64,000 nt of DNA from NCBI GenBank assembly GCA_041658285.1, contig JBBAAP010000001.1:260916-324915 (forward strand). Reading direction: 5' to 3'. How positions within the stretch are numbered: the first letter of the stretch is position 1; the number at the start of each line of letters is the position of its first letter. Positions 1-56,105 of the stretch are shown in pieces. A program made the position numbers and the translations under genes. Under the pieces are notes generated by a model. That model did not search any database, was not told where the DNA came from, and saw only the letters and a list, made by a program, of their open reading frames with translations. Source of the DNA: Candidatus Brocadiia bacterium (GTDB taxonomy: Bacteria > Planctomycetota > MHYJ01 > JACQXL01).

Positions 1-1627
1 GGAAGACCTTAACGATGGTGACGCCAAACATGACAAAGGACAGCCAGCGGACCAGCGCCGATTTCCGGGCGATGCCGATGACCAACAGCGCCAGCGCGTA
101 AACGGCCCATTCGACCGAAAGAGTCCGAAGCATCATCGATTCGGGCAACACCTTGCCGCAATAGCGGTACCAGGCCACGGTCTCCATAGTCATCATCCAG
201 AATCCCAGGCCGACGCTGAGCACCAGCAAGAGCGGCACCATAACATTGCGTTCGGTCCGGGCCGGGGCGCGCCGCATATATATGTAAGCCGCGCCCAGAT
301 ATCCAGCCAGGGCTATAAGGAAGGTGATGAATCGCTCGTTGATGATAGCCATGAAGCCGACGGCGTTGACGTTCATCGATTCGTATCCGGCCAGCCGGAT
401 GAATACCAGGAATACCAGAATCAGGATGCCGCCGACGCGGGTGGCCCAGGAACCGGTCTGGAAGCCTATCCATACCAGGCCGACGGCCTCAACTACCCAG
501 GCGATGGTTATCCATTTGTGCGACAGCTGGATGGGCACGACCAGGGTCAGGAAGGTCAGGGCGATGCCCAACAGAATCAGCACCAGGTATTTGTCCTCTT
601 TATTACGCATCTGGGCCAGACGGCCCAGGCCCATATAAACCCCGGTCATCAGCAGGGTGAATATGCCCATATAGGCCTCGTAATCTGACCAGAGCAGGCC
701 CAGACTGGCGCCGTAATACAGGAACGGCACAAATATCAGCAAGAACAGGTCGCCGAAGCCGGTCTTCTTGCGATTAACGATATTATAGAAGAATGACAGG
801 AAGGCAAATATCAGGAAGAACAGGGACATGAATAACTCGGTCCGGGGCAGTTTCTCAATATGGTAATGCTGGGCGGCCCAGCCGATGAACAGACCGATGG
901 TGAAGAAAAATGCCAGGTAATCCAGAAACTTCCAGCGCTTGAAATAGGCCGTGGCCAGGATGCCGATGTCAAGAATGGCGATGTAGGAAAACAGGGCAAT
1001 CTGGTTATCGATGCCGGTGGAAAGCATTATCGGGGTCAGGAATCCGCCGATAAGAGCCAGCACGGCGATGGGCGCGGCCGAATACCGGACCGACAGGATT
1101 ATGCCTATGAGCGTGACCAGTATCATGAATCCGAAGGCCGGCCTCTGCCCTATCAAGCCGTAGAAGGAGAATGCCGCAAAGACGGACAGGTAAAGTATGG
1201 CCAGCCCGCCGCCCATCAATCCGAAGGCCGGCCCGCGGAACTTGCGTAATACCGCGAAGTGGCCGATGGTTATCAGTCCCAACCCGCCGATGATGCCCAG
1301 TACCACCCGGCCGGTCTCGCCTATCCATTTATTGTCGAAGGCGTATTTGAGGAAGAACCCGGCGCCGATAATCAGGGCGAAGATGCCTATCCAGTTGGCG
1401 TACTTCATTCCGATTTTGGTTTCGATGCTATCGCCGGCCGGCTTGGGCTCGGCTGTAACCGTGGTCGGCTGTGATTCCATAACCTTGGCTACGACCGTTT
1501 CCACTTGGGCTTGTTCCGCCGGCTCAGGCGCTTTTTCGATGCCCAGTTGTTTTTCTATCCGGGCCAGGCGCTCGGCCAGCTCGTCAATCCGATGGGACAG
1601 GTTTTCATCAAAGGGTTTGTCTGCCAT
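1..1627 (-). CDS. DUF2339-like polytopic membrane protein; C-terminal part runs off the window start.
   Basis: I translated the reverse complement by hand from the ATG at 1625-1627 and the frame stays open to position 1. The N-terminal soluble segment (MADKPFDENLSHRIDELAERLARIEKQLGIEKAP...) is followed by many TM helices (ANWIGIFALIIGAGFFLKYAFDNKWIGETGRVVLGIIGGLGL...), which is the DUF2339 architecture. It is absent from the ORF track because the stop codon lies outside the window. Confidence 0.7.
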   Translation of the reverse strand, partial: MADKPFDENLSHRIDELAERLARIEKQLGIEKAPEPAEQAQVETVVAKVMESQPTTVTAEPKPAGDSIETKIGMKYANWIGIFALIIGAGFFLKYAFDNKWIGETGRVVLGIIGGLGLITIGHFAVLRKFRGPAFGLMGGGLAILYLSVFAAFSFYGLIGQRPAFGFMILVTLIGIILSVRYSAAPIAVLALIGGFLTPIMLSTGIDNQIALFSYIAILDIGILATAYFKRWKFLDYLAFFFTIGLFIGWAAQHYHIEKLPRTELFMSLFFLIFAFLSFFYNIVNRKKTGFGDLFLLIFVPFLYYGASLGLLWSDYEAYMGIFTLLMTGVYMGLGRLAQMRNKEDKYLVLILLGIALTFLTLVVPIQLSHKWITIAWVVEAVGLVWIGFQTGSWATRVGGILILVFLVFIRLAGYESMNVNAVGFMAIINERFITFLIALAGYLGAAYIYMRRAPARTERNVMVPLLLVLSVGLGFWMMTMETVAWYRYCGKVLPESMMLRTLSVEWAVYALALLVIGIARKSALVRWLSFVMFGVTIVKVF

Positions 1628-8269: not shown

Positions 8270-8368
8270 ACAGGTCCCTCTCTTTGCGCCTGCTTGTATA
8301 ATAAACTCTGCGGCAGTCTGGGAATTTTTCTTGACAGAATGCCTGATTTTGATTACTATAACGTGTCT

Positions 8369-9184
8369 ATGAAAGTCACTTTTCTTGGTTCCGGAACAGG
8401 GATACCTTATACTCGGCGTGCTTCGCCCGGGATACTGGTTGAGTCAGGTAACATCCGTTTGCTTATGGACTCCGGCCCCGGCGCCTTAAGGCAGCTGGCT
8501 CAGCTGGGCATCAATTCACATCAGATTAGCCACCTGCTTTATACCCATTTTCACCCGGACCATACCAGCGACCTGATTACGTTCCTGTTCACAGCCCGTT
8601 ACCAGATAACATCGCCCTTAAAAAACGGTCTGACCCGAGCAACACAAAAGTTCATTAATAGCCATAAAACCGGATTTCGAACCGCCCCGCTGACAATCAT
8701 CGCGCCTAAGGGATTGAATAAATTCTACCGGAATATCCTTAACCTCTATTATAAGTGGATCGTACCCACTACCTATAAATTGACACTTAAAGAAGTACTG
8801 GAAAGTTCCTTCAAAGTCGGCAATCTCAATATCAAATCATCTGAGATGAAGCACGAAAAGTACAGCGTAGGTTATCGGCTGACAACTCCTGGCGGAAAAA
8901 GCCTGGTTTATTCAGGCGATACTGAATACTGCCCGAACATCGTACGGCTGGCCAAGAACTCCGATGTTCTGGTCTTAGAGGCCTCGGCTCCGGATGAAGT
9001 AGCTATGCCCTACCATCTCAGACCGCTGACCTCGGCCCGGATAGCATCCGAAGTAAACCCGAGAAAGCTTATTCTGACCCATCTTTATCCGGTCTGCGAC
9101 GAACATAACATTACCAATCAGGTGCATAGTCATTGGCCCGGCAAAGTGGAAACAGCATTGGATTTCAAGAGTTTTAAACTGTAA
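8369..9184 (+). CDS. MBL-fold metallo-hydrolase (RNase Z-like)
   Basis: It has the HxHxDH motif (HFHPDHTSDL). The tracked ORF begins at TTG 8294; the in-frame ATG at 8369 (MKVTFLGSGTG) matches the canonical MBL N-terminus. Confidence 0.75.
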   Translation: MKVTFLGSGTGIPYTRRASPGILVESGNIRLLMDSGPGALRQLAQLGINSHQISHLLYTHFHPDHTSDLITFLFTARYQITSPLKNGLTRATQKFINSHKTGFRTAPLTIIAPKGLNKFYRNILNLYYKWIVPTTYKLTLKEVLESSFKVGNLNIKSSEMKHEKYSVGYRLTTPGGKSLVYSGDTEYCPNIVRLAKNSDVLVLEASAPDEVAMPYHLRPLTSARIASEVNPRKLILTHLYPVCDEHNITNQVHSHWPGKVETALDFKSFKL

Positions 9185-9211
9185 TATTTTATATTAATAG
9201 GAGGAATCAAC

Positions 9212-10957
9212 ATGTCAAAGAATGTAGTTTTCGATGAACAGATACGGCTTTTGCTTAAAAAAGGCGTAGACAAAACGGTCCGGGCGGTTAAATACACCTA
9301 TGGCCCGGCCGGACGGGCGGTGATGATTGACAAGGGCTGGGGCAGCCCGTCCGTTACCCGGGACGGGGCCAGCGTAGCAGACGAAATCGATCTGATTGAC
9401 CCGCAAGAAAATCTGGGAGCCCAGATGGTCAAAGCGGCCGCCTCTAAAACAAATGACGATACCGGCGACGGCTCAACCACTACCGTTATCCTGGTCGGTG
9501 CGATATTCACCGAAGGGCTCAAACACGTCACCGCCGGCGGCAACGCCATGGCCATAGGCCGGGGGATCAAAAAGGCTGTCGCCAAACTGACCGAAGAAAT
9601 TAAAAAGATATCAGAACCGGTCAAGGTCGAACGCAGCAAAACCAACAAAATAATCAACCAGATAGCCACTGTGGCGGCCGGCAACGACCCGGTCATCGGG
9701 AAATTCATAGCTGACGCCATGGACAAGGTCTTGGCCGACGGCGTCATTACCATCGAAGAAGGCAAAGGCACCGAAACCGATGTCAAAATCGTCGAGGGTA
9801 TGCAATTCGACCGCGGTTTCGTGTCGCCCTACTTCATAACTAACCAGGAAAAGATGGAAGTTATCCTGAACAACCCATACATTCTTATCTACGAAGACAA
9901 AATCTCCAACCAGAATGATTTAATCCCGCTGATGGAGTCGCTCATCAAGGAAAAACGCCCGCTTCTTATTATCGCCGAGGACATTGAAGGCGATGCCCTG
10001 GCTACGCTGGTCGTCAATAAAGTTAAAGGCACGCTGGAATGCGCCGCGGTCAAAGCGCCCGGTTACGGCGACCGCCGGAAGGAAATGATTGAAGACATCG
10101 CTATAATGACCGGCGGCAAGGCCGTATTCAAAGACCTGGGCGTAAACATCAAGAAACTGCCTAAGGAATACCTGGGCACAGCCCGCAAGGTCATTATCGA
10201 TTCGGAAAATACCACCATCGTCGAAGGCGCCGGAACTTCCAAGGAAATTAAAGCACGTACCGAAAAAATAAGGTCAGAGATGGCCAAAAGCGATTCCGAT
10301 TACGACCGGGAAAAACTCCAGGAACGACTGGCCCGGTTCAGCGGCGGAATCGCACAGATAAACATAGGCGCGTCCACCGAAACCGAACTCAAGGGCAAGA
10401 AAGAGCGGGCTGAGTCGGCACTGTCAGCCGTTAAGGCGGCCCTGGAAGAAGGCGTAGTCACGGGCGGCGGAATTGCGCTGCTCCGTATCACCAGCGCGCT
10501 GGATAAACTTAAGTTCGAAGGCGACGAACAGATTGGCGTCGAGGTCATCAGAAAAGCCCTGGAACTGCCCTTCCGCCAACTCATTGAAAACAGCGGACGC
10601 GAACCGTCATCAATACGACGCAAACTCAACTTATCCACTAAACCAGACTGGGGATTTGATATCCAAGCCGGCGAAATCCGCAACATGACCGAAGCAGGCA
10701 TCCTGGACGCCACCAAGGTAGTTCGGACTGCATTACAAAACGCGGCCAGCGTAGCTGAACTGCTTTTAACCACCAACGCCGCAATCACCGATATCAAGGA
10801 AAAAAATGGGGGCGGACCGCAGATGCCTCCGGGCGGAATGCCCGGCATGGGCGGTATGCCTGGTATGGGTGGAATGCCCGGAATGGGTGGTATGCCCGAT
10901 ATGGGTGGTATGCCCGATATGGGTGGCATGGATATGCGCGGAATGGGTATGGATTAA
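9212..10957 (+). CDS. groEL: Chaperonin GroEL paralog 1 (Cpn60) with a C-terminal GGM repeat tail
   Basis: 581 aa, colinear with GroEL (GPAGRAVMIDKGWGSP, TGDGSTTTVIL, GGGIALLR). A strong SD (AGGAGGA) precedes it and no groES gene lies immediately upstream. The C-terminus carries GGMPGMGGMPGMGGM repeats. Confidence 0.93.
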   Translation: MSKNVVFDEQIRLLLKKGVDKTVRAVKYTYGPAGRAVMIDKGWGSPSVTRDGASVADEIDLIDPQENLGAQMVKAAASKTNDDTGDGSTTTVILVGAIFTEGLKHVTAGGNAMAIGRGIKKAVAKLTEEIKKISEPVKVERSKTNKIINQIATVAAGNDPVIGKFIADAMDKVLADGVITIEEGKGTETDVKIVEGMQFDRGFVSPYFITNQEKMEVILNNPYILIYEDKISNQNDLIPLMESLIKEKRPLLIIAEDIEGDALATLVVNKVKGTLECAAVKAPGYGDRRKEMIEDIAIMTGGKAVFKDLGVNIKKLPKEYLGTARKVIIDSENTTIVEGAGTSKEIKARTEKIRSEMAKSDSDYDREKLQERLARFSGGIAQINIGASTETELKGKKERAESALSAVKAALEEGVVTGGGIALLRITSALDKLKFEGDEQIGVEVIRKALELPFRQLIENSGREPSSIRRKLNLSTKPDWGFDIQAGEIRNMTEAGILDATKVVRTALQNAASVAELLLTTNAAITDIKEKNGGGPQMPPGGMPGMGGMPGMGGMPGMGGMPDMGGMPDMGGMDMRGMGMD

Positions 10958-11001
10958 AATTATTCTCCCCGCCATTAGCCGGGGGTCAAAGGAGATTAAA
11001 T

Positions 11002-11289
11002 ATGAATATCAGACCGTTAGAAGACAGAATCGTGATAAAACCACTTGAGGAAAAAACTACCACTGCCGGCGGAATCATCCTGCCGGATACAGTCAAGGAA
11101 AAACCCCAGAGGGGCGAGGTCGTAGCGGCCGGCTCCGGTAAAATTATGACCAGCGGTAAAAAAGCTCCTCTGATCCTAAAAAAAGGAGATACCGTCATAT
11201 TCGGCAAATACGCCGGAACAGAAATCAAGGTCGACGAGAAAACTTACATCATAATGAAGGAAGACGAAATCCTGGCCCGGATAGAATAA
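11002..11289 (+). CDS. groES: Co-chaperonin GroES
   Basis: 95 aa (MNIRPLEDRIVIKPLEE...AGGIILPDT...GEVVAAG). The SD is AAAGGAG. Confidence 0.95.
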   Translation: MNIRPLEDRIVIKPLEEKTTTAGGIILPDTVKEKPQRGEVVAAGSGKIMTSGKKAPLILKKGDTVIFGKYAGTEIKVDEKTYIIMKEDEILARIE

Positions 11290-20767: not shown

Positions 20768-21188
20768 TTTTGTAAGCAGATTAAGCTGATTTATCTGATT
20801 TTAATCAAGTATTAATTTAGATTAGTAGACCGCTTATGTCAACCAAATTTCCTACACCCGAATACTTCAAATATAACCACTAAAACTACTGATTTTTAAT
20901 TTTACCACGAAGACACGAAAGTAAGAAAGCACTAAATTTCGTGTTTTGATAGTTTGGCTGTTAGAACATAGTGAGTTATCAGCCGACTATACCTAGCAGT
21001 CCATCGGCTGTTAGCGACAAAGGAGCGTTACAGCCGAGGATACCCAGCAGTAATTCACTAACGTTCAAACTGCTGGAGTATAATTCGCTAACACTCAAAC
21101 TGCCAGAGTACTGTTTCGAGTTTTCGTGGTATATTAATAAAATAATCAGTGTTCTCAGTGCCCTCAGTGGTTTAATATGGCGGATTTC
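20768..21188. repeat. Intergenic region composed of CAC-NNA-G family repeat modules
   Basis: It contains TACCACGAAGACACGAAAGTAAGAAAGCACTAAATTTCGTGTTTTG and GAGTTTTCGTGGTATATTAATAAAATAATCAGTGTTCTCAGTG. Its segments 20950-21000 and 21090-21110 recur as reverse complements at 23950-24040. Confidence 0.75.
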
Positions 21189-22502: not shown

Positions 22503-23906
22503 TTAGTGTGCATTCGTGGTTTCAGCGGGGAATATTTTGCCGGAATTCATTATCCCCTTGGGGTCAAAGAGTGTTTTCAACTGCTTCATCAGCTCTATCT
22601 CGGCGGCGCTCAGCTCCAGCGCCAGGAAACGCGACTTGGTCAGCCCGATGCCGTGCTCGCCTGAAAGCGTTCCGCCGCACTTAACGGTCTCGGTAAAGAG
22701 TTCGTCCAACGCCTTTTCCAACGATGTTTTGTGTGCCTCGTTAGAGATAAGGAAATTAACGTGCAGGTTGCCGTCGCCCAGATGGCCGAAGGTGGCAATG
22801 GGGATTCCGTATTTTGATTCTATGGACTTAATCACGGCCAGGATATGGGTGATTTGGTCACGCGGCACGCAGATGTCCTCACTGGCCTTCTGGGCGGTGA
22901 TGGAATAAAGCGCCGGAGAAACGGCCTTGCGGATGGCCCAGAGCGATTTGGCTTCTTCCGGGCCGTTTGCCCGGAGCATCTTGCCCGGCCTTGACTGGCT
23001 GATTAATTCCTCCAGCGCCTTGGCTTGGCCGGCCAAGTCGTTCGGGTCGCCGTCCAGCTCTATCAAAATCCCGCTCCCAATTTCGGATTTCGGATTTCGG
23101 ATTTCGGATTTACCAAAATCAATATCTTTAAGATATGCTGTAACCGCCTTGAGCGATGAAGCGTCCATAAACTCTATGGCCCGGGGCAATATCCGTTTGG
23201 CCAGCGTATCCAACCCCAGCTTTACGGCCGCCGGTTCATTATCGTAAAATATAAAGAAAGTCGCCTCGGACTGCGGTTTGGGCACCAGCCGCAGGATTAT
23301 CTGGGTGATGATGCCCAGGGTTCCCTCGGAACCGATAAACAGGCGGGCCAGGTCGTAGCCGGTCGAGCGCTTGAGCGTCTTGCGTCCGGTATGGATGATT
23401 TGACCGCTGGGCAGGACAGCTTCCAGCCCAAGCACGTAATCCCTGGTGGTGCCGTATTTGATACAGCGCAGGCCTCCGGCGCCGCAGGCAACATTGCCGC
23501 CCAGGGTGCAGAAATCGGCGCTGGCCGGGTCAGGCGGGTAAAACAGGCCGTGCCGGCTGACCGCCTTCTGAAAATCAGCGCAGACCACACCCGGCTCAAC
23601 CACGGCCGTGAAGTTAACCGGATTAATCTCTATGATACGGTTCATTAAAGACAGGTCTATGACAATCCCGCCCTTGACCGGCACGGCCGAGCCGGTAACG
23701 GAACTGGCCGCACCCCGCGGGTAGACCGGGGTAGCGTGCTCCGAGGCAATCTTAAGGACATCGGATATCTCGGCGGCATTAAGCGGCTTAACAACTATGT
23801 CCGGCAGATGCTGGAGTTTGGAGGCGTCGTAAGACGCGGCTAACCGGTCCTCAGGCAACCTGGAAATCCGTTCCGCCGAGATTATTTTTCTTAGTTTGTC
23901 GTACAT
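22503..23906 (-). CDS. glcD: FAD-linked oxidase, GlcD / D-lactate dehydrogenase-like
   Basis: It has the FAD-binding PCMH domain (PRGAASSVTGSAVP...) and the conserved C-terminal GTLSGEHGIG motif. It contains an in-frame heptanucleotide repeat insert. Confidence 0.85.
   Translation of the reverse strand: MYDKLRKIISAERISRLPEDRLAASYDASKLQHLPDIVVKPLNAAEISDVLKIASEHATPVYPRGAASSVTGSAVPVKGGIVIDLSLMNRIIEINPVNFTAVVEPGVVCADFQKAVSRHGLFYPPDPASADFCTLGGNVACGAGGLRCIKYGTTRDYVLGLEAVLPSGQIIHTGRKTLKRSTGYDLARLFIGSEGTLGIITQIILRLVPKPQSEATFFIFYDNEPAAVKLGLDTLAKRILPRAIEFMDASSLKAVTAYLKDIDFGKSEIRNPKSEIGSGILIELDGDPNDLAGQAKALEELISQSRPGKMLRANGPEEAKSLWAIRKAVSPALYSITAQKASEDICVPRDQITHILAVIKSIESKYGIPIATFGHLGDGNLHVNFLISNEAHKTSLEKALDELFTETVKCGGTLSGEHGIGLTKSRFLALELSAAEIELMKQLKTLFDPKGIMNSGKIFPAETTNAH
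23080..23111. repeat. Heptanucleotide microsatellite (ATTTCGG) x4.6 inside the glcD-like coding sequence
   Basis: Copies start at 23080, 23087, 23094 and 23101, followed by a partial copy. On the minus strand it encodes KSEIRNPKSEIG, an insert relative to E. coli GlcD in the loop before the conserved ELDG. Confidence 0.85.
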
Positions 23907-24190
23907 ATTAATTAGTTTACTTAGGATTATGTATAAATCAAGACATTTAAGAAAGTATACTCTGGCAGTTTGATGGCGTCTTTGGCGCCAGAATTACTGC
24001 CAAGTATCCTGGGCTAATAACTCACTGCATTCTAACAGCCCACGGATAATTAAAGTTGAGTTCTGGCCAAATAAATTGACACTTCCGGATAAAATGACTT
24101 AATATGATTTAAGGAAAATAAAATCAGGCAAAAGGAAATAGACGCGAACGGGTGTGTTTCCAACCCAAATAATAATGATGGAGGCTAAAT

Positions 24191-26014
24191 ATGGGTTTAT
24201 TTGCGTCAATAATTCATTTACGAGATGTTGAGCAAAACCAGGTAATCAAAGAAATTGATAAGCGTATGAGTGAGTCAGGGTATCGCAGGAGTGAATTATT
24301 GTCTATTCCCCAAAGTGGTCCTTCCACACTCCCCGACCACAAAAAATGGATGAACGATGGCAAGTACTACTTAGTTTCGCCTAAACAAGGTAATTGGGTA
24401 ACCATTATTGAGTCGCCACTTGTAACTACCGAACCATATGGAAGCGGCCTTGCCAACATGTTAAGCAAAACATTATCCACATACTCATTAGCGTTAAGTG
24501 TCCACGATAGTGATATCTTCTTCTACAATTTAGATTATAAGGGAGTCCCCAAAGACGGGTATAACAGTTATCCTCAGTACTTTGAGGATGCGCGACTCAG
24601 TAATGCTAAGGTAAAAGAACAAAGGCATACGCCGGAAGAGTTTCAACCAATTTTACCTCAAGGCGTAACAATGGAGCAATTAAAAAACATTTTAAATGCC
24701 GGCTGGTGGAATGAATTTGATACGGGTTCTTTAGGTAATGATGGCGCAGTCACCGGAAATGATGAGTATTTTGGTTCAGAGGAAAATAGAATGACCGATT
24801 TTGGCACCTTACTACAATTAGGTGGCAAAGTGACTAAATATCCATATGCGTTTTGGGATGGGTCGGAAGATATTCTATGGAAGGAATTCAAGGCTATTAG
24901 ATACTTAAAACAGAAAAATAGCTGTATGATATTTTTCGATAATGAAATCCAGGAGAACTCAACTTATGCACAAAGGTTTTTTTCCTTATGCATTGATTTC
25001 AGCACATTTTTATTATTAGCATTAATTTGTACACTAGCGCCTGAGCCATACGATACAATTTCCGCATTTACCTTGATTGTATGGTATATTGTATGGCATA
25101 AAATATTCCGAAAAACAGGACAAACCATTGGAACAAAGTTAATGAGAATAAGAGTTGTTCCGATGTATGGGTCTAAATTATCTTTTATAGCCCCGTTTTA
25201 CCGAATATTTTTAAGCGCTCCTCAATTTGCTCTTTTTGCGGCATACGAAAACATAGACCGGCATGAAGACCAATCTATCCTTGATAAGGTATCGCATACA
25301 TATACAATTAAACTAAAAAATAAAATCGTTAGCAAAGGGACCGTTTCTACCGGCGGAGATGCTGCAACCCAGGGACAAAAAATCTTTACAGGCAGAAATA
25401 AATACCGCCAAGCGAGCATTCAACGACTGAGCAAGTTTGGTATCAAAATTCCCGGACACCTACCTTTAATCGAGAATAATTCGGAGTTGAATCCTAGAAG
25501 TAAGGATGAGGTAATAGGCAAAATATGCGCCTTTGGATATGTCATTGGCATGGGGTACACTGATAAAACAGATGATTTGATTGCCAGTATAGATAAATAC
25601 AAACTTTGGCCATATGTCAGTCAGTTCCAGGCCAAGTGCCTTAAAAATCCGGGTAGTATAACAAAACAGGACAAGACAAATTTTATGTGGCTGGCCGAGT
25701 GCGTTTATGCATTTGCTTGGTGTCTGAAGATTGTTGAACTGGATTGCACTAAAACCTGCCCTGATAATCTGGCTGATTTAACCGTTCCAGGCCATACGCC
25801 GGATGAATTCATGAAGAACAAGGAAATGAGGAGCCTTGAAGAAATACAACAAGAAGCGGATTTTCATTACTGCTTACATTGGTATGAGCAACAATGCCGT
25901 ATAGATGGCAAAAAGGGGTTAGTTGGAGAAGGGGTAATCTGGGAAAGAAGAAGAGCATTGGATTGGACGATTGGCGTTTCTAACGACTGGGATGATATGC
26001 CAAGCGATACCTAA
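24191..26014 (+). CDS. Hypothetical protein with a central RDD-family membrane domain (low-GC islet)
   Basis: 607 aa with GGAGG as SD. The central TM pair carries the RDD-like motif (GQTIGTKLMRIRVV). The C-terminal ~250 aa contain FMWLAECVYAFAWCLKIVE ... ERRRALDWTIGVSNDWDDMPSDT, which resembles DUF4272-type C-terminal domains. GC content is markedly lower than in the flanking DNA. Confidence 0.6.
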   Translation: MGLFASIIHLRDVEQNQVIKEIDKRMSESGYRRSELLSIPQSGPSTLPDHKKWMNDGKYYLVSPKQGNWVTIIESPLVTTEPYGSGLANMLSKTLSTYSLALSVHDSDIFFYNLDYKGVPKDGYNSYPQYFEDARLSNAKVKEQRHTPEEFQPILPQGVTMEQLKNILNAGWWNEFDTGSLGNDGAVTGNDEYFGSEENRMTDFGTLLQLGGKVTKYPYAFWDGSEDILWKEFKAIRYLKQKNSCMIFFDNEIQENSTYAQRFFSLCIDFSTFLLLALICTLAPEPYDTISAFTLIVWYIVWHKIFRKTGQTIGTKLMRIRVVPMYGSKLSFIAPFYRIFLSAPQFALFAAYENIDRHEDQSILDKVSHTYTIKLKNKIVSKGTVSTGGDAATQGQKIFTGRNKYRQASIQRLSKFGIKIPGHLPLIENNSELNPRSKDEVIGKICAFGYVIGMGYTDKTDDLIASIDKYKLWPYVSQFQAKCLKNPGSITKQDKTNFMWLAECVYAFAWCLKIVELDCTKTCPDNLADLTVPGHTPDEFMKNKEMRSLEEIQQEADFHYCLHWYEQQCRIDGKKGLVGEGVIWERRRALDWTIGVSNDWDDMPSDT

Positions 26015-26103
26015 GAGCCCTTGGGGACAGTCCCGCATTCGAGAGCCCTTGGGGACAGTCCCGCATTCGGCAAGAGCCCTTGGGGACAGTCCCGCATTCG
26101 GCA
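26014..26103. repeat. Tandem array A: 3 copies of a 28-31-bp unit (AGAGCCCTTGGGGACAGTCCCGCATTCG) containing the GGGACAGTCCC palindrome
   Basis: The copies start at 26014, 26042 and 26073 with no spacers. The first copy overlaps the stop codon of the 607-aa gene. Confidence 0.85.
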
Positions 26104-26180
26104 AACGCTGTTTTTATAGCCATTCCAAGGCGTTATTTTCTAAAAATAACCCTCTTTTAGCCTTGGAGAGTATTATATAG

Positions 26181-26311
26181 GAGCTGTGTTAGTCAACACC
26201 GGAGCTATGTGATATAACATAAGAGCTGTGTGATATAACATAAGAGCTGTGTGATATAACATAAGAGCTGTGTGATATAACATAAGAGCAATATGACATC
26301 ATATTGCTCTT
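26181..26311. repeat. Tandem array B: 5 copies of a 21-bp unit (GAGCTGTGTGATATAACATAA) followed by a perfect 11-bp-stem hairpin
   Basis: The copies start at 26181 (degenerate), 26202, 26223, 26244 and 26265. The hairpin AGAGCAATATG-ACAT-CATATTGCTCT follows at 26284-26311. Confidence 0.85.
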
Positions 26312-26458
26312 GGGGCCCGGATAAACCAAGTAATTAAGCCCATTTAAGAGCATCATTTTCTCAAACCCGCCCTATTCCACCTCAAAAACGAATATAACGC
26401 ACTTCCAGCCAGGGGGGGGTATCCCCCCCATACTATACCCCCTCCCCCCGGATACTAC

Positions 26459-26580
26459 ATACCTTGTGAGGTGGTTATATATACCTTGTGAGGTGGTTAT
26501 ATATACCTTGTGAGGTGGTTATATATACCTTGTGAGGTGGTTATACATACCTTGTAAGGTGGTTATATATACCTTGCATC
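26459..26580. repeat. Tandem array C: 5.5 copies of a 22-bp unit (ATACCTTGTGAGGTGGTTATAT), preceded by G8 and C7 homopolymer tracts at 26412-26429
   Basis: The copies start at 26459, 26481, 26503, 26525 and 26547, with a partial copy at 26569. The array abuts the suhB stop. Confidence 0.85.
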
Positions 26581-26584
26581 TTAC

Positions 26585-27459: not shown

Positions 27460-27610
27460 ATATTAAACCACTAAGTGCACTAAGAACACTGATTGTTTCA
27501 TTAATATACCACGAAAACTCGAAATAACCAAAACACAAAATTTAGTGTTTTCTTACTTTCGTGCCTTCGTGGTAAGATTGAAAATCAGTGATTTCAGTGT
27601 TCTCAGTGGT
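27460..27610. repeat. Mosaic palindromic intergenic repeat (CAC-NNA-G family), full copy
   Basis: The left arm AACCACTAAG..AACACTGA pairs with the right arm TCAGTGTTCTCAGTGGTT. The inner module ...CCACGAAAACTCGAAAT...CTTACTTTCGTGCCTTCGTGGTAAG is the reverse complement of the module at 28963-29040. Confidence 0.8.
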
Positions 27611-28940: not shown

Positions 28941-29045
28941 TCCAAATACAACCACTAAGAACACTGAAATCACTGATTTCAATCTTACCACGAAGGCACG
29001 AAAGTAAGAAAGCACTAAATTTCGAGTTTTCGTGGTATATTAATA
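28941..29045. repeat. Mosaic palindromic intergenic repeat (CAC-NNA-G family), inverted relative to the copy at 27460-27610
   Basis: The sequence is AACCACTAAGAACACTGAAATCACTGATTTCAATCTTACCACGAAGGCACGAAAGTAAGAAAGCACTAAATTTCGAGTTTTCGTGGTATATTAATAAAA. Its terminal 30 bp are identical to 21116-21145. Confidence 0.8.
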
Positions 29046-29070
29046 AAACTTTACCGTGAAATCAGATGAA

Positions 29071-51158: not shown

Positions 51159-51729
51159 AAATCACCTCTTACTCGCTGTTAGCCTTCAGACATCCCGAAA
51201 GCATTCGGGAGGGCTGAGGCGTTACAGCCGAGTTAGATCCCGTCTGTTCCGACGGGATAATCCTTGCAGAATTCTATCTCGTTATACGGATACAGTGTCC
51301 GAATTCCACCCAAGAAACCCATATTCGCAGGAGACAAGGGCAACCCTTTGGCCAAGGAAACCCGGGGCAACCCGGCATCCCTGCCCGACTGGTCAGCCAC
51401 CCCTACCAACCCGGTCAGGCGGGCTTACGGATACCCCGGAGGGTGCGTTTCCTGTGCCCGAGGGCGCCCTTGCCCTCCACTATATACTCTGCCGGACCCC
51501 CACCCCTTTTGGGGAAAAATCCGGGAATTCCGGAAAGAAAGTTTAGCCAGAGCAAAACCTCCTGTAAGGACGGATTAACACGGATAAATATGGCTATAAT
51601 TAAATCTGTGTAATCAGTGGCTAAAACTTGACAGCCCCACGGAAATGGTATATTAGAGGCTTATTAATTATTAATTGAAGTTGTGGCAAAGTCAAGCAGG
51701 TAAAATAATCGTATTAAAGGATGCGTTGT

Positions 51730-52515
51730 ATGAATGAAGCCAGCAGGTTCCTTCGTTATGTATTGCCTAGTTTAATAATGTTACTAGAGTTTTTTATATA
51801 CCTATGTATTTCTAACTTTGGGGATGCGAAAAAATTACTAGAATATATACGTGGTGACATAGGAATAGCTATTATTTCTTTCTTGGGCGTCGGCGCTATG
51901 GGATATTTTTTATCAATGTTTTATTATTCCCTTTGCCCTCTAGTAGATTATCGCCCCCTTATTAAGGCTTGTACGGAATGGAATTTGTTAAGATTACAAG
52001 ATAGAAGTACACACAAACCTATAGATGTTGATAAGATTTCGCGTGATGGCGCGTGGCGAATAGCAGTTACGCTCTGGCAGGAAAATAAGATGAAAGACGA
52101 GGGGATAAAAGGAGCAGATGATAGGCAAGAAAGGTTTAGCGATATACTTAATAGTCACGGTGTAGCTTTAATTGGCGCAATTATAGGAATCCTTGGATGG
52201 TTTGCTTATATCACGTATACTGGGTTTATTAGGTCTCCAGTTTTTTGGGACAAGTGGCCTTTTATTATTTCGGTACCTATGCTAATAATACTTTTGCACA
52301 TATCTAATTTTAAGAATGCTCGTGAAACTGCTCTAACAATAGGGGAAACTGTATTATTTAATGCATTATCGAATAACTTTAAAATACCTTCAGAATTATA
52401 TGTCGAAAATAAAATACCAGAAGAGGAAAGAAGAAAAATAAATGCTAAGAAAATCTTTAGCATTAATTTTGGCAAGTATAACAAAGTAACATTTGAACGG
52501 TTTTATAATAATTAA
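51730..52515 (+). CDS. Hypothetical 4-TM membrane protein (low-GC islet); possible membrane effector
   Basis: It has two TM hairpins (residues ~13-70 and ~157-205) separated by a charged soluble loop. The tracked start is 51721; I prefer the ATG at 51730 because of the upstream AAAGG. Confidence 0.55.
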   Translation: MNEASRFLRYVLPSLIMLLEFFIYLCISNFGDAKKLLEYIRGDIGIAIISFLGVGAMGYFLSMFYYSLCPLVDYRPLIKACTEWNLLRLQDRSTHKPIDVDKISRDGAWRIAVTLWQENKMKDEGIKGADDRQERFSDILNSHGVALIGAIIGILGWFAYITYTGFIRSPVFWDKWPFIISVPMLIILLHISNFKNARETALTIGETVLFNALSNNFKIPSELYVENKIPEEERRKINAKKIFSINFGKYNKVTFERFYNN

Positions 52516-52529
52516 TCAAGGGTTATCAG

Positions 52530-53546
52530 ATGACTATAAATTGTTTATTCTGTAATCAACCACTTACCCAAGATGCTCAAATTCTCACGACATGGATTTA
52601 TTTAGATAGCTGTAAAGAATGTGGGCTTTATTATAAAGACCAACGAGCCGATGTTACCACTAAAATCAATGCCGATGATAAAGTTCGTATTGCATCGTAC
52701 CTGCAAACAAAGAAGCTGAATAATTCACAAATAAGACCAGTTATTACTGACTTTAAAAACAAATCAGGAACAATTGAGGAATTAGAAGATAATGGAATAA
52801 ATCCTAATAAAATAACGCTAATTACAATTGAAGAAATGATAGATCAGTTCCCTAAAAGAATTGATGAGAAACTAAATAAGGCATTACAGAACTTAGGAAA
52901 ACTATCTCATTACTTAGGTGAACCAATTACTGTGGGTTTAAACTACCAACCAATTTTGTATGCGTTAAACTCAGGGGAATTTGAGGCAATATTATTCGCT
53001 TTGCGTGATGATGGCTATATAAAATGTACGTGGGATGGTATTGCTGGAACTAACCTCATTGTAATAACCCCTAAAGGTTATGAACGTATTTATGAATTAG
53101 GCAAGGTTAACCCGACCTCTCATCAGGCGTTTGTGGCGATGTGGTTTCCTGATCCTGTGAAAAATGAGACGGAGCATAACTTTTTGGATAATGTCTATAA
53201 AGAAGGGTTCGCAAAAGCAATTGATAATGCTGGCTATAAGCCTCAATTAATAAAGAATAAGGAATTCCTCGGCGAGATACACGATGAAATTATTGCAGAG
53301 ATAAAAAGGAGCAGGTTTTTAGTGGCCGATTTTACAGGCCAAAGAGGCGGGGTTTATTATGAGGCCGGATTTGCCCATGGATTAAATATCCCAGTCATAT
53401 ATACCTGTCACTGTGATTATATGAAGGACTGTCACTTCGACACCAATCACTATAATCATATCGTCTGGAAAGATGAGGCAGATTTATATACCCAATTATT
53501 GAATAGGATAAGGGCAACCATTGGACAGGGACCAAAAACAAATTAA
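52530..53546 (+). CDS. Zinc-ribbon / winged-helix / nucleoside 2-deoxyribosyltransferase-like (NDT/SLOG-type Rossmannoid) protein
   Basis: It has an N-terminal CxxC-x17-CxxC ribbon (CLFCNQ...CKECG). The middle is wHTH-like (AILFALRDDGYIKC...LIVITPKGYERIYEL). The C-terminus has FVAMWF (NDT beta1, cf. YFGAGWF) and RFLVADFTGQRGGVYYEAGFAHGLNIPVIY (NDT active-site region, cf. GLGMELGYALSQGKYV). Confidence 0.6.
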   Translation: MTINCLFCNQPLTQDAQILTTWIYLDSCKECGLYYKDQRADVTTKINADDKVRIASYLQTKKLNNSQIRPVITDFKNKSGTIEELEDNGINPNKITLITIEEMIDQFPKRIDEKLNKALQNLGKLSHYLGEPITVGLNYQPILYALNSGEFEAILFALRDDGYIKCTWDGIAGTNLIVITPKGYERIYELGKVNPTSHQAFVAMWFPDPVKNETEHNFLDNVYKEGFAKAIDNAGYKPQLIKNKEFLGEIHDEIIAEIKRSRFLVADFTGQRGGVYYEAGFAHGLNIPVIYTCHCDYMKDCHFDTNHYNHIVWKDEADLYTQLLNRIRATIGQGPKTN

Positions 53547-53699: not shown

Positions 53700-54065
53700 C
53701 CTCAAGCCCATCCATATCTACCCAGGGCTTGGGGGTGCTTATACCTCCAACCCACCCATATCTACCTAGGGCTGGACCGTCATCCACCCTGGGATTGACC
53801 GTAATCCACCCAGGGCTTGAGGGTCATTATACCTCCAGCCCACCTACATCTTACCTCCAACCCATCCACATCTACCCAGGGCTTGACCGTCATCCACCCT
53901 GGGCTTGACCGTAATCCACCCAGGGCTTGGGGGGCATTATACCTCCATACCACCCACATCTTACCTCCAACCCATCCACATCTACCCAGGGCTGGACCGA
54001 CATCCACCTAGGGCTTGACCGTAATCCACCCAGGGCTTGAGGGTAATTATACCTGGTATGGAGGG
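53700..54065. repeat. Minisatellite: ~110-bp unit, ~3.3 tandem copies with nested 22-bp sub-repeats
   Basis: TCTACC(C/T)AGGGCT recurs at 53761, 53871 and 53981 (period 110), and ATCCACCCAGGGCTTGACCGT-like subunits recur within each unit. The ORFs called here (53395..54090, both strands) are repeat artefacts. Confidence 0.8.
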
Positions 54066-55036: not shown

Positions 55037-55564
55037 ATGAACAAACGGCCTATTATTATAAAGATAATTCTAATCCTGCTTATCTGGGAAAACCTTGTAT
55101 TCGTCTTAGGCCTGGCTGATACATTTATTGTGCACAAATCATGGAGTTCATTTCTCATTCCAAGTATAATTCTCCTCGCTTACGCATACATTGCGGGTTT
55201 ACTGTCTTTGGTTTCGACCATAGGCGTTTGGCGCGCTAAGAAATGGGGCTGGTGGACCGGCGCTTTGTATTTCATATTTCTCGTAATAATAAATATAAGT
55301 TTATTTATTCCCTTGCCCGGGTTTATTGGAATGTTCAGTCAATCCCCTCTTGGAATATCTTTTTATATTGAGCGTGTGTGTTGGGGCCTATTTAGCGCCT
55401 TGATATTCCTGGCTTTCTTCAAGGATAACGTGCTGGAATATTTCGGCTTTCAACAACTGCCCAAAACAAAGGTAATTGCCATCTTATCTTTAACCGCCCT
55501 GTTAATTTTATTGATACTTGTCATACTGATGGCGAAATTTACTCCTTATCTAAACAGAATATAA
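55037..55564 (+). CDS. Hypothetical 4-TM membrane protein (paralog 1, low GC)
   Basis: 175 aa. Its start MNKRPIIIKIILILLIW and the block GVWRAKKWGWWTGAL are shared with the next gene. Confidence 0.6.
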   Translation: MNKRPIIIKIILILLIWENLVFVLGLADTFIVHKSWSSFLIPSIILLAYAYIAGLLSLVSTIGVWRAKKWGWWTGALYFIFLVIINISLFIPLPGFIGMFSQSPLGISFYIERVCWGLFSALIFLAFFKDNVLEYFGFQQLPKTKVIAILSLTALLILLILVILMAKFTPYLNRI

Positions 55565-55583
55565 ATACAAAATGGGAGCGTAT

Positions 55584-56105
55584 ATGAACAAGCGGCCTCT
55601 TATTATAAAGATAATCCTCTTCCTGCTTATCTGGGGATGTGCCTTATCTATTTTCAAGCTAAGTTATTTATTTATTTTGTATGGTAAAAATATTATCTAC
55701 GCGGATACGTTCAGCTTCGTTTATATATACATAGCTCTTATGGGATTACTGTCTTTAATTTCAGCAGTCGGTATCTGGCGCGCTAAGAAATGGGGCTGGT
55801 GGATAGGTGCTTTACGTTTTATGTGTAACGCATTATGGAATGCAAATAGATTTATTTGGATACCCCTCGGGTTTATTGGAACAGCCAGTAAATATTCTTC
55901 TGCGAAATATTGCCTTGAATATGGTGGTTTTGGGCTAGTTTCCGCCTTTTTATTCATGCTTTTCTTCAATAAGAATGCACTGGAATATTTCGGCCTGCAA
56001 CAACAACCTAAAATAAAGGCAATAGTTATCTTGTTTGTAATAGCTCTGACAATTGTAGCTGTGTTAAATATGCCATCGTTGATATTTATTTACCGCCATA
56101 TTTAA
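55584..56105 (+). CDS. Hypothetical 4-TM membrane protein (paralog 2, low GC)
   Basis: It has MNKRPLIIKIILFLLIW and GIWRAKKWGWWIGAL. I prefer the ATG at 55584, which has a GGGAG SD; the tracked start is 55572. Confidence 0.6.
   Translation: MNKRPLIIKIILFLLIWGCALSIFKLSYLFILYGKNIIYADTFSFVYIYIALMGLLSLISAVGIWRAKKWGWWIGALRFMCNALWNANRFIWIPLGFIGTASKYSSAKYCLEYGGFGLVSAFLFMLFFNKNALEYFGLQQQPKIKAIVILFVIALTIVAVLNMPSLIFIYRHI

Follow-up and report, generated by a model that had tools for sequence, protein, structure and literature searches.

What kind of protein is encoded by a lone, AT-rich gene that sits among housekeeping genes, and how did it come to be there? We examined this question in a 64,000-nucleotide stretch of contig JBBAAP010000001.1 from a Candidatus Brocadiia bacterium, referred to here as the window. 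The gene is a real, uninterrupted open reading frame (ORF) on the plus strand, 24191 to 26014 with the stop codon included, that begins with ATG and encodes 607 amino acids. Its translation agrees with the frame and the C-terminus given in an original prediction that was made from the letters of the sequence. Genes for GlcD- and GlcF-like proteins, SuhB, a radical SAM protein and MutL flank it, no toxin gene lies beside it, and a public record of the identical protein, encoded on a 467-kb contig of a metagenome-assembled genome, carries the annotation 'DUF4272 domain-containing protein [Candidatus Brocadiia bacterium]'. Judged by comparison with its relatives, the protein is a mosaic of modules that exist elsewhere as separate, unlinked genes: an N-terminal domain of an unannotated family (hereafter the N-domain), an RDD membrane module and a C-terminal DUF4272 domain (Table 1). 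A linker separates the last two, and the structure model of the C-terminal part begins, in this linker region, with low predicted local distance difference test scores.

An exhaustive phmmer search of 1.84 billion representative proteins (E <= 0.001) returned 1,220 matches. The query aside, none of the best 150 of these 1,220 covers more than one module, which bears out the original suggestion that the combination of domains is undescribed. A word-indexed search of 5.8 billion clusters with the full protein matched the query alone. In about 30 genomic contexts of module homologues, no two modules were ever found within ±6-10 kb of each other. Because there is no conserved operon partner and the modules never co-occur, the fusion is better described as a mosaic than as a condensed pathway; a Rosetta-stone reading, in which the modules would be functionally linked elsewhere, was rejected on the same count of neighbourhoods. 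The original prediction had tied its accessory-gene interpretation to the nature of the homologues, asking whether these were common, encoded in core genomes and of known function; those we found are sporadic and unannotated for each module, and their neighbourhoods are not conserved.

Searches of reference collections gave little to set beside this architecture. PDB sequence searches with the protein and with profiles of both soluble families yielded nothing meaningful, NCBIfam gave no usable match for the protein, PADLOC-DB defence models returned no family at E <= 1, and PHROGs gave no match. No Imm, SUKH or SuFu Pfam model matched either the protein or 34 members of the N-domain family. 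Structural matches in BFVD were weak and YubB/Api92-like (best E 8.7e-4, template modelling score, TM, 0.32), no structural match reached a level that supports any enzyme class, and no relative of the N-domain or of DUF4272 was found in IMG/VR contigs within the sensitivity of the patterns used.

For the N-domain an α/β fold is predicted with confidence; it has no model in Pfam, and no closely related structure has been solved. Among the matches listed, residues 1-240 correspond to standalone proteins of about 235-248 residues, at 38-46% identity, and to a few longer proteins. Conserved motifs are MGLF, HD[DS]D, DGYNSxPQYFE, QRHxP, GWW and YPY, and the invariant polar residues comprise D122, Y124, S126, R145 and H146 together with the HD[DS]D motif. 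Since the MGLF... beginning of the query is common to the N-termini of its homologues, the start codon can be taken as fixed. In GTDB species genomes the family occurs at 10 loci, eight of them in Planctomycetota (Schlesneria, Gemmataceae, Gemmatales and others) and one each in a Polyangiaceae and a Bacteroidales metagenome-assembled genome (MAG); a tblastn search of plasmids with the N-domain gave no match. No member has a signal peptide, and in some (P0012, P0043) the domain is joined to ankyrin or TPR repeats. The genes tend to be found in long runs of small genes that share one direction and mostly lack annotation, as on three contigs that hold, respectively, two DUF4279 genes, DinB and SMI1_KNR4/SUKH (L012), DUF6959, TPR, DUF6896 and an IS110 transposase (L002), and ParE, BrnT, an MqsA-like gene and IS481 (L013). 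An Imm33 protein is the neighbour of the N-domain gene in one GTDB locus.

The central module is matched by Pfam RDD (PF06271) at residues 283-341, with 26.7 bits against a cut-off of 24.1 (E 7.7e-6), a weak and partial match to profile positions 45-101 of 137 (57 positions). Its closest relative among the matches listed, P0097, is a standalone RDD protein of 158 residues, which phmmer aligns at 45% identity over query residues 292-377 and BLASTP aligns near end-to-end (query residues 251-377 with P0097 residues 5-153, 36% over 150 columns). The signature of the family, an Arg at the N-terminus of transmembrane segment I, an Asp in the middle of that segment and a second Asp near the C-terminus (PMC5996927), is present as R262 and D269 in YAQRFFSLCIDF and D368 in SILDKVSHTYTI, and these two query segments align with FKERFLTLSIDF and SVLDIMSGTYTI of P0097. 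Hydrophobic segments are predicted at about residues 263-285, 290-308 and 331-353; on the Kyte-Doolittle scale one segment is strong (264-282), and the weaker ones at about 290-308 and 331-353 come from inspection together with the P0097 alignment. The 'RDD-type TM pair' claimed originally therefore stands as to the RDD family, by the Pfam score, and falls as to the pair, since three hydrophobic segments are predicted.

The short loop between the first and second hydrophobic segments is acidic, whereas the loop between the second and third (residues 309-330) has a charge of +7 and contains GQTIGTKLMRIRVV. Because this loop is strongly basic and the N-domain belongs to a family without signal peptides, we infer that both are cytoplasmic, in an N-in, loop-in, C-out arrangement; DUF4272 would then face the periplasm if the module makes three membrane passes. 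The three predicted hydrophobic segments, the R/D/D signature, a GQTxGxKxxxxxVV loop and the frequent fusion to other domains are all shared with the RDD family as described (PF06271; PMC5996927, and PMC12419801 for VanZ-RDD fusions). In contrast, the query lies barely above the Pfam threshold, with 57 of the 137 profile positions matched, and large soluble domains enclose its RDD module at either end, an arrangement unseen in the matches listed. It also differs in that an Rhs-type toxin end precedes its closest relative among these matches, which is a context that we did not find described for RDD. According to a recent analysis, proteins of the family have a conserved intramembrane binding site that faces the cytoplasm and are often fused to signalling or enzymatic domains (PMC12419801).

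At the C-terminus, the DUF4272-like region of the original prediction proved to be a full-length match to Pfam DUF4272 (PF14094; residues 406-602, 122.3 bits against a cut-off of 27, E 1.9e-35, profile positions 2-207 of 208). Residues 404-607 match standalone DUF4272 proteins of about 208 residues at no more than 53% identity among the phmmer matches listed, and the identities of relatives from an alignment-based search go up to 61%. The query keeps the positions that are invariant in alignments of 47 and 64 members, namely LP near the N-terminus, W, D..Y..HW, ERR..L.W and a C-terminal DWD...DT; the invariant positions include R, W, D, H and E, and the conserved W-D-D-x-x-x-D-T motif with which the family terminates is present in the query too. 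The domain is all-helical and has no solved relative. With its full-length, high-scoring match and its retained C-terminal motif, the query resembles the rest of the family, in which the domain is also C-terminal in all multi-domain members seen; it differs in being tethered to RDD, whereas DUF4272 proteins are usually standalone, at about 208 residues, or have lipoprotein or signal-peptide forms. A signal peptide or lipobox is found in 6-8 of 146 members, and such exported variants are compatible with the predicted periplasmic placement.

DUF4272 genes have mixed neighbours. One lies in a Stieleria array alongside SMI1_KNR4, and the contig of the closest relative carries an array behind an ankyrin protein. 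On another contig (L018), a DUF4272 gene (9001-9627, its product 54% identical to the domain of the query) lies directly upstream of the gene for a 503-residue eCIS_core (DUF4157) protein (9721-11232), which it adjoins. The eCIS_core domain marks effector or toxin proteins. A second recurrent architecture places an unannotated N-terminal domain of about 160-195 residues (MICT.YS..., YRERA, L.GMY.F) before DUF4272 (P0095, P0100, P0113, P0143, P0122, P0142, P0129). This N-terminal partner of DUF4272, of about 190 residues, was tried as a remote homologue of the N-domain and rejected (hhalign probability 0.2%).

The most useful lead to a function is the positional link of the query's RDD subfamily to an Rhs-type toxin end, which we found in a candidate toxin-immunity module on the short contig that encodes P0097 (L109; Table 1). 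The ORF upstream of P0097 opens with NPLNYIDPDGM, that is P-x4-D-P-x-G-M, and thus matches the Rhs core-end motif; PxxxxDPxGL demarcates the C-termini of Rhs toxins (PMC3150448). The motif is followed by a C-terminal domain of 186 residues that is glycine-rich (15.6% Gly) and hydrophobic, and P0097 starts 38 bp after the stop codon of this ORF. From this placement, 38 bp downstream of an ORF that joins the Rhs motif to a C-terminal domain, P0097 probably occupies the canonical immunity-gene position of an Rhs toxin, and the toxin is probably membrane-active. Membrane-embedded immunity against pore-forming or ionophoric toxins is familiar from the colicin immunity proteins. Membrane-embedded families listed in the survey of polymorphic toxin systems (PMC3482391) include the two-transmembrane Imm-CdiI and Imm17. 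P0097 is like such proteins in being small and multi-pass and in lying immediately downstream of a glycine-rich, hydrophobic putative toxin C-terminus; it differs in having no sequence relationship to them, and the likeness is positional and comes from one short contig. Searches of plasmids by tblastn with P0097 and with the toxin end of L109 gave no match.

Polyimmunity proteins, as that survey describes them (Zhang et al. 2012, PMC3482391), are fusions of unrelated immunity domains, frequently with ankyrin as a partner and usually without an adjacent toxin gene. Because standalone relatives of the modules often lie in mixed arrays (SUKH, Imm33, ankyrin and toxin-antitoxin genes) and P0097 stands behind an Rhs-type toxin end, we tentatively favour, at well below an even chance, the reading that the 607-residue protein is an orphan membrane protein of polyimmunity type, with three toxin-neutralising modules and no toxin gene of its own nearby. 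Three independent modules would be joined in one polypeptide, expressed from its own promoter, and each, in the compartment where it resides, would stop another of the polymorphic toxins that come in: the N-domain in the cytoplasm, RDD in the membrane, against membrane-inserting glycine-rich toxins, and DUF4272 in the periplasm. Neighbours of the conflict type accompany module homologues in L002, L012, L013, L009/L010, L015 and L109, and in part in L018.

The likeness to polyimmunity proteins (Zhang et al. 2012, Biol Direct 7:18; PMC3482391) lies in the fusion of small, unrelated modules that each also occur standalone, in the lack of an adjacent toxin gene, and in a sporadic distribution that looks laterally transferred. 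Module relatives are likewise found in heterogeneous SUKH/Imm33/ankyrin arrays, and one homologue of the N-domain is fused to ankyrin. The differences are that the modules of the query are not catalogued as Imm families, that the N-domain and DUF4272 have no known toxin partner, and that many homologue contexts are not conflict-related. An integral-membrane RDD module and a predicted span of two compartments are also not described in the available part of that source. The more specific proposal, that the RDD subfamily provides immunity against glycine-rich, membrane-inserting Rhs toxins and that the 607-residue protein acts as a laterally transferred polyimmunity shield across three compartments, is one we regard as rather doubtful.

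Several observations weigh against the polyimmunity reading. The link between Rhs and RDD comes from a single contig of 1,403 bp that begins at the motif, with the YD-repeat core off the contig, and the C-terminal domain encoded there has no Pfam match. None of the modules belongs to the recognised Imm families, the searches of PADLOC and PHROGs were negative, and the protein does not contain two or more recognised immunity domains, as polyimmunity proteins do. Conflict-type neighbours are lacking in L003, L011, L020, L021, L110, L111 and L112; the surroundings are plainly housekeeping or miscellaneous in L020 and L021 (lipoyl synthase, MraW, RtcB, archease), in L011, on Rhizobium pRL12 (CorA, RND efflux) and on a Vibrio plasmid, and a lipoprotein-type DUF4272 in L112 lies beside LytTR and an ATPase. 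In L018 the DUF4272 gene is upstream, not downstream, of the eCIS_core gene. DUF4272 is also stably kept on 73 Rhizobium plasmid records, which is atypical of immunity genes with their fast turnover, and the invariant HD[DS]D, D-x-Y-x-S and R-H motifs of the N-domain would suit a catalytic or ligand-binding site no less than a binding surface. For much the same reasons (uncatalogued modules, miscellaneous contexts, plasmid retention, active-site-like residues and the RDD binding site of PMC12419801), we consider nearly as likely, and possible rather than probable, a membrane sensor or effector centred on RDD. In such a protein RDD would bind a ligand, for example a lipid or a lipid-linked molecule, within the membrane near its cytoplasmic face; on the two sides of the membrane the N-domain and DUF4272, as enzymatic or signalling modules, would act on this ligand or respond to it. 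The intact R262/D269/D368 signature, the invariant D122, Y124, S126, R145, H146 and HD[DS]D of the N-domain, which one would look for in an active or ligand-binding site, the invariant R/W/D/H/E positions of DUF4272, and its stable retention beside transport genes on Rhizobium megaplasmids are all consistent with this. Nevertheless, conserved operon partners and a pathway context are lacking for every module, the modules are never linked elsewhere among the matches listed and the roughly 30 contexts, which is unexpected for one functional pathway, no structural match supports any enzyme class, and the closest RDD relative among those matches lies behind an Rhs-type toxin end.

Other explanations appear less probable than these two. 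It is improbable that the gene is phage or mobile-element cargo, encoding an anti-phage or superinfection-exclusion protein, with the tandem arrays downstream of it as iteron-like or attachment remnants of the element. A single inserted gene of low GC under a promoter of its own would suit such cargo, the 21-22-nt downstream arrays resemble iteron-type spacing, and 22-nt tandem arrays likewise come after a second low-GC gene pair of the window. Against it stand the negative PADLOC and PHROGs searches, the lack of N-domain and DUF4272 relatives in IMG/VR contigs (within pattern sensitivity), the weak BFVD matches, with a best E of 8.7e-4 and TM of 0.32, and the lack of an integrase, transposase, tRNA or flanking direct or inverted repeat at the locus. 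Na+(Li+,K+)/H+ antiport has been shown for an RDD protein of Halobacillus andaensis (PMC5996927), and the query retains the signature residues of the family; an RDD-type cation/proton antiporter with added regulatory domains is nonetheless quite unlikely. That work is a single study of a distant member, in which R35 and D42, conserved family-wide, were dispensable for transport (PMC5996927), and the Pfam match of the query is weak and partial, a three-pass module is small for a transporter, and neither the flanking domains nor the context point to ion homeostasis. We give the least credence to an artefactual or non-functional fusion, that is an assembly chimera or a recent accidental read-through of three adjacent genes, even though the architecture is unique among the best 150 of the 1,220 matches and both available assemblies may come from the same reads. 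The MAG contig and an independent Logan assembly of SRR8449812 (L001) are identical in sequence, the latter corresponding to window positions 23085-26071 with no mismatch and ending within tandem array 1; the ORF is uninterrupted, all modules are complete end to end against standalone homologues, and composition is uniformly low across them. Since the three modules are never neighbours elsewhere (about 30 contexts), there is also no operon from which a read-through could have arisen.

The composition of the gene sets it apart from its surroundings. Its GC content is 0.395, against a mean of 0.508 ± 0.061 for the 47 ORFs of the window, and its GC content at third codon positions (GC3) is 0.380 against 0.620 ± 0.125; flanking genes have values of 0.53-0.56 and 0.63-0.72, respectively. 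The AT-richness relative to the flanks that had been noticed originally is thus confirmed, and GC3 is low in every module (0.38, 0.30 and 0.43 for modules 1, 2 and 3). The non-coding parts of the block between the GlcD-like gene and suhB are also low, with GC 0.36-0.44. Among the matches found, the closest relatives of DUF4272 (61%) and RDD lie on low-GC contigs (0.35-0.41), whereas N-domain relatives lie on high-GC planctomycete contigs.

When metagenomes were scanned with the GlcD-like neighbour, a single comparator that is reasonably close came up, a contig from Hainich groundwater (L029), whose products share 61% (GlcD), 68% (SuhB) and 39% (GlcF) amino-acid identity with those of the window. 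In this contig suhB, glcD and glcF are co-directional, the SuhB C-terminus ends near nucleotide 221-226, the GlcD-like match runs from near nucleotide 405 and GlcF is next, so that about 183 bp lie between the SuhB stop and the GlcD start. The corresponding distance in the window is 2,678 bp, and this block holds the 607-residue gene on the opposite strand together with three tandem arrays. Taken together, the shift in GC and GC3 and the break in synteny relative to L029 support the view that this is an acquired, lone accessory gene inserted between the housekeeping genes suhB and glcD, with the reservation that the comparison is with one comparator at 61-68% amino-acid identity. With the housekeeping flanks, the same evidence upholds the acquired accessory function that had been suggested. 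No DNA similarity was detectable between the L029 spacer and the insert, and the breakpoints therefore cannot be placed. We found no integrase, transposase, tRNA target or flanking direct or inverted repeats as hallmarks of mobility at the locus, and Rfam and tRNA scans of it were negative.

Candidate signals for expression precede the gene. The GGAGG Shine-Dalgarno sequence reported originally was found 6 nt before the ATG, and the promoter-like TTGACA-17-TTAATA sequence is present as well; its statistical distinctiveness did not hold, as promoter-like sites are not enriched in the AT-rich region (5 observed against 7.9 ± 2.9 in shuffled sequences). Downstream, the 570-bp 3'-3' spacer that separates the gene from suhB is occupied by three different tandem arrays, in keeping with the original description of the right-hand side (Table 1). 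A palindrome at 26284-26311 with a 12-bp stem (AAGAGCAATATGA/TCATATTGCTCTT) marks the end of array 2 and scored as terminator-like on the minus strand. The CAC-repeat element that had been placed on the left was found neither there (23907-24190) nor in the next intergenic region (20768-21188). The sole array of the CCACCC type in the window lies at 53716-54054 and may be the repeat that was meant; it is complex, CCACCC-rich, with nested periods of 22, 88 and 110 nt, and lies directly downstream of the low-GC gene pair at 51721-53546, in parallel to the 21-22-nt arrays downstream of the 607-residue gene.

Table 1. Coordinates of the protein modules and of sequence features around the 607-residue gene (window numbering), with the contig that encodes P0097 (contig numbering) in the last three rows
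Feature	Position	Strand	Remarks
Sigma-70-like promoter candidate	24076..24105	+	TTGACA (24076-24081), 17-18 nt spacer, TTAATA/TAATAT; 10 of 12 positions match
GGAGG Shine-Dalgarno	24180..24184	+	6 nt before ATG
Module 1	24191..24940	+	Residues 1-250; α/β domain of unannotated family; predicted cytoplasmic
Module 2	24941..25345	+	Residues 251-385; complete RDD membrane module
Linker	25346..25405	+	Residues 386-405 (KGTVSTGGDAATQGQKIFTG...); covered by no homologue
Module 3	25406..26011	+	Residues 406-607; full-length all-helical DUF4272; predicted periplasmic if RDD makes three passes
Inferred inserted block	23907..26584		2,678 bp, GlcD-like start to SuhB stop
Tandem array 1	26013..26104		28-31 nt x3, AGAGCCCTTGGGGACAGTCCCGCATTCGGC; begins at stop codon
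Tandem array 2	26202..26289		21 nt x4.2, GAGCTGTGTGATATAACATAA; then palindrome 26284-26311
Tandem array 3	26459..26576		22 nt x5.4, ATACCTTGTGAGGTGGTTATAT; ends 9 nt before SuhB stop
AT-rich window ORFs	51721-52515, 52530-53546, 55037-55564, 55572-56105		Three without Pfam match, one with sub-threshold DUF2127
L109, toxin-end ORF	2-592		Logan SRR8302209, 1,403 bp
L109, P0097	631-1107		RDD
L109, 71-residue ORF	1132-1347		Two transmembrane segments

Low GC content in the window is not confined to the 607-residue gene. Four other ORFs are strongly AT-rich among high-GC genes (GC 0.34-0.39, GC3 0.29-0.44), in the regions 51721-53546 and 55037-56105, and look like further ORFan or acquired genes. 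Because they are equally AT-rich and lack a meaningful Pfam match, it seems to be usual for this genome to have AT-rich ORFan genes dispersed among its core genes. Two short motifs recur around the locus. A 25-nt intergenic motif, GAGTTTTCGTGGTATATTAATAAAA, occurs at 21118-21142 (+), 27496-27520 (-) and 29024-29048 (+) with 0-1 mismatch (0 expected by chance), and all three copies lie between minus-strand housekeeping genes. A 16-nt motif, TACTCTGGCAGTTTGA, lies twice in the MutL/GlcF spacer, at 21065-21080 (-) and 21095-21110 (-), where it belongs to a 30-nt x2 repeat, and a third time at 23958-23973 (+), in the spacer just upstream of the 607-residue gene. In-frame repeats were seen inside the GlcD-like gene (ATTTCGG x4.6, 23080-23111) and near the 3' end of the gene at 9212-10957 (18-nt unit x5.2 of MPGMGG type, 10838-10930). 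The metallo-β-lactamase-fold protein encoded at 8294-9184 has a weak, sub-threshold match to the Anti-Pycsar Apyc1 family (25.8 bits against a cut-off of 50) and is probably a generic hydrolase of this fold.

The protein is best filed with the RDD-family and DUF4272 membrane proteins, as a variant with a new N-terminal domain family. Its analysis defines an unannotated protein family of about 240 residues, found mainly in Planctomycetota and with a confidently predicted fold, and a unique fusion in which an RDD membrane module stands between this family and DUF4272. The host belongs to a poorly sampled, anammox-related Brocadiia lineage and provides an example of AT-rich ORFans inserted one at a time between core genes. 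For RDD, a very large family still described as being of unknown role, the link to an Rhs end offers a testable hypothesis of membrane immunity. Should the immunity reading be wrong, this would be an ordinary uncharacterised accessory membrane protein; if the three-compartment shield is real, it would give DUF4272 and the unnamed N-terminal family their first functional assignments.

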